Of a stretch of 64,000 bases of DNA, positions 22,576 through 22,671 are shown in pieces. Position 1 is the stretch's first letter. Each line of letters starts with the position of its first letter. Position numbers and translations under genes: made by a program. A model generated the notes under the pieces. The model did not search any database. It had not been told where the DNA came from and was given only the letters and a program-made list of their open reading frames with translations. The stretch comes from an uncultured Clostridia bacterium (GTDB lineage Bacteria; Bacillota; Clostridia; TANB77; CAG-508), in contig CALXRX010000005.1 of NCBI GenBank assembly GCA_944390975.1, positions 8,182 to 72,181 on the forward strand. Direction: 5' to 3'.

Positions 22576-22671
22576 TTGATAGGTGATTGTATATAAATAT
22601 TTTGAACAGTCGCCATTCCCCACTTATGGCTCCACATCGTTCTTCAATATTTATATACAATTACCTATCAA
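22576..22671. repeat. MITE-like palindromic intergenic element, copy A (about 26-bp terminal inverted repeats ttgataggtgattgtatataaatatt)
   Basis: The core gaacagtcgccattcc / ccacttatggctcc / catcgttcttc is shared with the copies at 32640, 51936, 60238 and 61995. Confidence 0.7.

Follow-up and report, generated by a model that had tools for sequence, protein, structure and literature searches.

A probable family of non-autonomous transposable elements, associated with 7-bp target duplications, in an uncultured species of gut Clostridia

Prokaryotic MITEs are elements of less than 500 bp, AT-rich and intergenic, with terminal inverted repeats, flanking direct repeats and transcripts that form stable stem-loops (PMC10969869). 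Here we describe a family of short palindromic repeats from one uncultured bacterium that resembles several described systems. Like this family, the Correia elements of Neisseria (CREE/NEMIS) are small and non-coding, ~100–155 bp long and bounded by terminal inverted repeats of ~26 bp; they lie between genes in many copies, are often transcribed together with their neighbours, and occur either at full length or in a form without ~50 internal bp, much as our copies are either long (c3 and c6) or short (c1, c4 and c5) (in part PMC10969869). The RUP, BOX and SPRITE repeats of Streptococcus pneumoniae are also short, AT-rich and intergenic in a low-GC Gram-positive host; they are clustered, give stable hairpins in transcripts and are believed to depend on enzymes supplied in trans for their mobility, RUP on that of IS630-Spn1 (in part PMC10969869). 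ERIC (IRU) sequences of Enterobacteriaceae share with the present family an imperfect palindrome, in their case of ~127 bp, a position in transcribed intergenic DNA in either orientation, size variants produced by indels, and a copy number that varies between strains (PMC10969869). Finally, REP sequences are palindromic, intergenic and multicopy as well, and REPINs are inverted pairs of them that form long hairpins.

The family lies in a window of 64 kb (the whole stretch of DNA that was analysed) with ~26% GC, in which GC skew (~+0.25) and AT skew are strong, uniform and positive and nearly all genes are on the plus strand. Proteins of the window were matched only on metagenome contigs (the BRZ_* and ONAT22-1 assemblies at ENA, and Logan runs). 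RpoD is at most 94% identical to that of any species representative; the nearest are gut MAGs named 'uncultured Clostridium sp./Clostridia bacterium', and Clostridium sp. CAG:452 and Candidatus Merdicola are among the more distant relatives. On this basis the host is an uncultured species of low-GC gut Clostridia.

A 27-nt core, GAAGAACGATGAGGAGCCATAAGTGGG, has five matches of no more than one mismatch in the window, at 22619(-), 32660(-), 51963(+), 60260(+) and 62037(-), compared with a mean of 0 matches over 100 dinucleotide shuffles. This confirms the five copies of the original prediction at the places it gave, with three cores in one orientation and two in the other. The junction GTATATAAATATTGAAGAAC is unchanged in all five window copies, the other half of the core together with its repeat occurs four times in the window, and a 26-nt inner inverted repeat, TTGATAGATAATAGTATATAAATATT, occurs eight times where none is expected. 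A profile search of the copies with nhmmer gives E-values of 1e-43 to 1e-29 for the five. The copies are not confined to the window, as a sixth (c6, long form) was found between divergent genes at L083:15764-15976, on a conspecific contig, ~1 kb past the window end. No further copy is present in 6.8 kb to the left of the window (contig L096) or in 9.1 kb further right (contig L112), and the total stands at six in ~86 kb of conspecific DNA, all inside one 43-kb stretch. Pfam confirmed rpoD, ftsZ, cdd, ppaC (DHH/DHHA2) and rpmB/recG as the neighbours, and every copy is intergenic, as had been proposed. The features in the window are:

22545..22686, minus strand: copy c1, subfamily X, short form; 3' of the rpoD terminator and 5' of a patatin-like gene
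32599..32755 (approximate), plus strand: copy c2, subfamily Y, intermediate form; flanked by ftsZ and the first ORF of a set of four 530-aa paralogues
51905..52115, plus strand: copy c3, subfamily X, long form, 211 bp; between cdd (minus strand) and a 98-aa ORF
60210..60359, plus strand: copy c4, subfamily X, short form; inside the ppaC stop codon
61960..61966, no strand: left AAAATAA of the c5 target-site duplication, with its right counterpart at 62122-62128
61967..62121, plus strand: copy c5, subfamily Y, short form, 155 bp; between rpmB and recG

The copies are 142–213 bp long; the element as a unit is a near-complete palindrome of 150–213 bp with the termini 5'-(A)GTTAC...GTAAC-3'. The ~95–150 bp first assigned to them was too narrow: in an alignment of the copies with their flanks, conservation reaches 20–45 bp beyond the earlier-drawn ends on both sides, and the segment absent from the empty site described below is the whole 155-bp unit at 61967-62121. 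Each copy is laid out as a B arm, an inner repeat of 26–28 nt, an asymmetric core of ~40 nt, the second inner repeat and an A arm; the long form has a further 50-bp central hairpin. The consensus of arm A is TTTTAAAAAAGTAAAATAGACT(A/G)AAC.(T/G)TAAC, with five matches of up to two mismatches in the window against 0.06 expected, and that of arm B is TTAAGTACTYATAGTCTGAA...TAAC. Arms A and B are imperfect inverted copies of each other, and the whole unit is thus a foldback. The ~27-bp inverted repeats of the original prediction are real (eight occurrences, none expected), but they are inner rather than terminal, with the outer arms lying beyond them. Likewise, the TTAA/TTTAAA sequences that had been taken for flanks of an AT-rich target site are the joints between inner repeat and outer arms, and so internal to the element.

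The inverted repeat amounts to ~70–85 nt per arm and covers nearly the whole element. MITE inverted repeats are usually quoted as 4–30 bp, far shorter than these arms, which is a point against assigning the family to the MITEs. The inner arms within a copy are identical at 28/28, 28/28, 27/28 and 26/28 positions. Copy c3 combines a perfect 28-nt inner inverted repeat with the extra 50-bp central hairpin (51990-52040); folded as single-stranded DNA, it reaches -45.8 kcal/mol, compared with -13.1 +/- 2.7 for shuffles (z = -12.3). In the minus-strand copy c1, positions 22545-22550 form the A-arm terminus, GTTAAC. The left arm of c2, which had been described as lost, is decayed instead, and contig L001 carries an identical c2. 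The right terminus of c2 (32740-32755) shows a small peculiarity: its last 11 nt are tandemly duplicated, TGAACTGTAAC TGAACATTAAC, and the second 11-nt unit resembles an X-type terminus, in a copy whose remainder is Y-type.

Strains of the species differ at c5. Among ten conspecific contigs, retrieved through the 65-aa L28 protein, the rpmB–recG spacer is 315 nt long (filled) in the window, L086, L087 and L088, and 153 nt long (empty) in L089–L093, which are three Logan runs and two ENA assemblies, 99–99.9% identical to the window. Empty sites, which had been proposed as a check on the transposon idea, thus exist in five independent conspecific assemblies. The empty allele reads GGT AAAATAA GTTTGTATTT, and the filled allele reads GGT AAAATAA [AGTTACTG...ATAGTAAC] AAAATAA TTTTGTATTT, where the outer brackets enclose the element. 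The 162 bp by which they differ consist of the 155-bp unit and one extra AAAATAA. The empty allele has a single AAAATAA and the filled one has two, a 7-bp target-site duplication, and it is this A-rich word, not TTAA/TTTAAA, that was duplicated. The break-points coincide with the family termini (A)GTTAC...GTAAC. In principle the empty allele could be the product of precise excision, or of deletion between the 7-bp repeats, rather than the pre-insertion state.

Flanking words at the other copies are less regular. Copy c4 lies between AATATAT (60203-60209) and AACATAT (60360-60366), a 6/7 match. The flanks of c3 are ACAAAAA (51898-51904 and 52114-52120), which agree at 7/7 positions if the terminal AC is shared between element and flank and otherwise at 5/7 within an A-run. 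Those of c1, TTTTCGT (22538-22544) and TTATTGT, agree at 5/7 when the intact B arm is borrowed from other strains. No flanking duplication is recognisable at c6, and c2 was left out of the comparison for its decayed left arm. Chance matches between 7-mers are not rare in DNA of 74% A+T, and a clean duplication confirmed by an empty site is in hand for one copy only, c5. Direct repeats flanking MITEs are expected to fade with age (PMC10969869). Read from B to A, the targets are ACAAAAA, AAYATAT, AAAATAA and ACRAWAA, all of them A-rich on the same strand. Arm A is on the plus-strand side in five of the six copies; to judge from these few sites, A-rich targets on an A-rich plus strand may explain this common orientation.

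The family has inverted repeats, a target duplication, several copies, presence/absence polymorphism, a stable stem-loop and no coding capacity in units that are shorter than 500 bp, AT-rich and intergenic, as MITEs do. It very likely represents non-autonomous DNA transposons (MITEs) of one uncultured gut Clostridia species, probably moved in trans by a putative DDE transposase. The earlier suggestion of a non-autonomous transposon is borne out by the empty site with its 7-bp duplication, the 6/7 match at c4, the inverted repeats and the lack of a conserved ORF. A duplication of 7 bp, made by staggered cuts, would imply an enzyme of the DDE type. Duplications of this length are made by several IS groups, for example parts of the IS982, IS4 and IS1595 families.

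The sites occupied differ in their relation to neighbouring genes. Copy c1 begins 40 nt past the rpoD terminator (22486-22505), and c4 ends 5 nt short of a bidirectional terminator at 60364-60405; in the terminator scan these are the only two copies with an adjacent terminator, and none was seen near c2 or c3. The statement that the elements are always beside terminators is accordingly true for two, arguably three, of the six copies. Copies c3, c5 and c6 are located in promoter regions: the left end of c3 is 15 nt upstream of the -35 of a cdd promoter-like site (11/12), and the insertion point of c5 is the -10 box of a recG promoter-like site, TTGGAA-17-TAAAAT, with TG in front. The common denominator of the sites is AT-rich intergenic DNA that tolerates insertion. 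Copy c4 is occupied in every conspecific contig that spans its site. There, a T from the flank and AG from the element form the ppaC stop codon TAG, whereas the codon before insertion is reconstructed as TAA, and the PpaC protein was thus unaffected. As c4 lies between the ppaC stop and the terminator, it should belong to the ppaC 3' UTR.

Three further observations concern the surroundings of the copies. Near c5 (62122-62170), filled strains differ from the empty strains L089–L093 at four positions. One of these is a C-to-T change, from CACAAT (empty) to TACAAT (filled), 18 nt downstream of the GTAACA end of the element; GTAACA and TACAAT together make a 9/12 hybrid promoter-like site just 5' of recG, which could be a compensation for the disrupted native promoter or could be chance. 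Next to c2, four paralogous ORFs of 530–535 aa (32837-34429, 36351-37955, 39095-40696 and 43021-44628) are 83–88% identical in DNA, and the two that were scanned have no Pfam domain above threshold. The intervals contain a 351-aa ORF without Pfam match, a gene for a KilA-N domain protein (41289-42179) and long stretches of non-coding DNA; GC rises slightly across 32837-44628 (0.29–0.305), and the region may be a variable surface-protein or phage-related array. At the rpoD locus, contig L002 (BRZ_GD NODE_69655) is 99.3% identical to the window over dnaG–rpoD and has the rpoD stop TAA in place of TAG; right after this stop its positions 1926-1984 diverge completely from window 22462-22520, and the contig ends 59 nt on. 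Contig L109, from the same sample, agrees with the window on the other side of c1. This is either a second strain with a different region downstream of rpoD or a mis-join.

Relative to the asymmetric arms, the core is forward in c1, c3 and c4 (subfamily X) and inverted in c2, c5 and c6 (subfamily Y). The segment that is turned round, GAAGAAC...CTGTTCAA, has AATATT on either side, and its boundaries fall inside the perfect inner repeat. The A arms differ as well, CTAAAC.TTAAC in X and CTGAAC.GTAAC in Y. No locus changes its type from strain to strain, which excludes flipping of the core as an active phase switch. The pattern points to a single old inversion of the core, followed by spread of both types, rather than to a switch.

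The core in both orientations, three against three, would also be expected if each copy were a nested composite in which an inner palindrome of 95–150 bp had inserted, either way round, into a central TTAA of an older outer-arm repeat; the TTAA/TTTAAA junctions suit this as well. We consider such nesting very unlikely. Neither solo outer arms nor solo inner units occur in the ~86 kb or in related species, and at c5 the polymorphism spans the whole unit with its outer arms, outside which the duplication lies. Inversion boundaries inside a perfect inner repeat are those of an inversion between inverted repeats, and X- and Y-specific outer arms fit one old inversion followed by spread of whole units.

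The two arms of a copy do not vary independently. The inner repeats differ among copies at three positions, with ATAATAG in c3, GTRATTG in c1, ATAATTG in c5 and GTAAATG in c6, and each difference is mirrored in the opposite arm of the same copy. Both arm-to-arm templated correction and selection for the hairpin could produce such mirrored arms; if the former, homogenisation may proceed through intra-strand template switching or quasi-palindrome correction. Copies also differ by deletions between short direct repeats. The short form of c1 equals the long form minus the segment between GGGGA..GGGGA repeats, with c4 and c5 similar, and in c2 the part of the long form that is missing is the one between AAT..AAT repeats. 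Among strains, c1 has three structural alleles: the window allele is without 25 bp, AGTCTGAAAATTAACCTTATTGTTA, after 22685 (these include the B-arm terminus and the right duplication), L106–108 and L111 retain these 25 bp, and L111 in addition is missing the central ~70 bp.

These features could be drawn together in a more speculative way, which we regard as unlikely. The element would be a self-correcting foldback whose arms are templated on each other in a hairpin or cruciform, whose core flips occasionally to give X and Y, and whose copies are retained for an effect of the hairpin on transcripts. Its hairpin would then act as a 3' stabiliser of ppaC, or as a leader or new -35 for recG, the recG idea arising from the C-to-T change to TACAAT in c5-bearing strains. 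Mobilisation might then pass through a single-stranded hairpin and not through a classical double-strand cut.

The coding content of the copies speaks for the MITE reading, and that of the surrounding DNA against it. The longest ORFs inside c3 encode 43–52 aa, a GGGG/GGG/AGG indel at the centre of the core shifts the reading frame between copies, and no ORF is conserved from copy to copy. Pfam found no transposase among ten unassigned ORFs of the window, which instead include patatin, KilA-N, SpoIIGA and a sigma factor. The search for a cognate enzyme, suggested with the original prediction, yielded no transposase and no full-length IS with matching ends in the ~86 kb of conspecific DNA, Pfam analysis of the flanking contigs included, and 1.28 Mb from relatives contained no IS with matching terminal repeats.

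That no DDE transposase is found nearby would suit a REP/REPIN-like or IS200/IS605-derived palindrome, spread by an HUH/Y1 single-strand transposase of the RAYT type acting on the hairpin. The near-complete foldback, with its very stable single-strand DNA hairpin, would suit it too, and a hairpin intermediate would favour concerted arms. HUH/Y1 enzymes are not known to make target duplications. The clean 7-bp duplication at c5 and the 6/7 match at c4 thus argue against this route, as do the absence of a conserved GTAG or GTAG/CGTC head, a length of 150–213 bp against 20–40 bp for REP, and the absence of a RAYT-like gene from the surveyed conspecific DNA. We give it very little weight.

The copies might instead be structured RNA genes, as the original prediction allowed, or cis-regulatory hairpins (mRNA stabilisers, terminators or leaders) kept for an RNA function, with mobility incidental or absent. 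Published MITEs often act in such a manner (PMC10969869). RNAalifold reports three base pairs with changes on both sides that preserve pairing, and both c4, between stop codon and terminator, and c5, between promoter and start codon, would be transcribed. In a palindromic sequence, mirrored changes do not single out an RNA strand and are equally well explained at the DNA level. The Rfam check came out negative: at the gathering threshold, 0 families were found in the whole 64-kb window (no tRNA, riboswitch, leader or sRNA), and in E-value mode the best hit for c3 had E = 0.57, with bit scores far under the gathering scores. Copies lie in both orientations relative to their neighbours and the core lies both ways relative to the arms, so that no single RNA strand is conserved. 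Moreover, c5 is dispensable within the species and c1 has been deleted in three different ways. We therefore find an RNA gene family highly improbable. The scans speak against internal promoters and terminators as well: within the elements, promoter-like sites are weak, scoring 9/12, and no commoner than in shuffles, and no element contains a terminator of its own.

As far as searched, the family appears to be restricted to the one species. No relative was found by blastn-short and nhmmer in the rpoD loci of 80 related species (1.28 Mb), or in contigs of a sister species (87% identity between the sigma factors). Searched as an exact pattern, the core had 0 matches in 185,579 species genomes (GTDB representatives), in JGI metagenomes (two patterns) and in IMG/VR. 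In blastn, the 226-bp c3 region had no match among phages, and among plasmids only a weak, 62-bp, AT-rich chance match to a Stammera plasmid. Several low-coverage contigs of the host terminate inside copies, which is expected of a dispersed repeat.

It is also very improbable that the copies are immobile relics, either decayed ends of an extinct IS or repeats spread by recombination, with c5 marking a deletion between chance 7-bp repeats: this would suit the lack of a transposase, the damaged copies (c1 with its terminus gone, c2 with a decayed arm) and the fixation of c1, c3 and c4 in all strains seen, but the c5 segment matches the conserved family termini exactly, which is unexpected of a random deletion, and c3 and c6 are 94.7% identical over 151 bp with perfect 28/28 inner repeats, which indicates recent amplification.

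Based on these observations, we suggest the following course for the family as MITEs. A transposase encoded elsewhere in the genome, putative and most likely of the DDE type, would bind the terminal repeats and insert the element into A-rich 7-bp words of AT-rich intergenic DNA, duplicating the 7 bp. Copies would persist only where they are harmless, as in 3' UTRs, at a regenerated stop codon or in promoter and leader regions, and at such sites they are probably transcribed with their neighbours as long hairpins. Deletions of a kind typical for long palindromes would follow insertion and remove the central hairpin between short direct repeats, the centre or a terminus. The long form would be ancestral, X and Y having parted when, long ago, the core was inverted between the inner repeats, and the two arms of each copy would evolve in concert.

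With this family, recent activity of a transposable element is documented for an uncultured gut Clostridia lineage that has a small genome and little mobile-element biology on record. For the host species, it explains breaks in metagenome assemblies at the copy sites, and strains can be typed by whether they carry c5 and by which of the three c1 alleles they have. Within a single family it also illustrates, in compact natural form, how palindromes behave: the arms evolve in concert, the core inverts and copies decay by deletion. The core inversion, mirrored arms and deletion alleles are tidy illustrations of palindrome dynamics rather than new biology, and the understanding of MITEs is unchanged by them.

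In comparison with the known systems, the family is set apart by its sequence, its host, its 7-bp duplication and its near-complete foldback. Correia elements duplicate TA (2 bp), whereas the Clostridia family duplicates 7 bp (AAAATAA; AAYATAT); their host is proteobacterial and, compared by eye only, their sequences are not similar. Unlike in Correia elements, the inverted repeat of the Clostridia family is near whole-length and the core is inverted in half of the copies. RUP also duplicates TA, and BOX is modular (boxA-B-C) and not a simple foldback; the Clostridia family differs from both. ERIC sequences are old and widely shared across families, while the searches found the present elements in one species only; ERIC shows no clear duplication, no transposase is known for it, and neither its sequence nor its host is related to those described here. 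REP sequences are 20–40 bp long with a conserved GTAG/CGTC head and are not known to make a target duplication (in part PMC3733652), in contrast to 150–213 bp, no such head and a 7-bp duplication here. A literature search for a bacterial MITE that duplicates 7 bp returned no match. The Clostridia repeats thus add to a well-known kind of element a family that had not been described before, and a new host.
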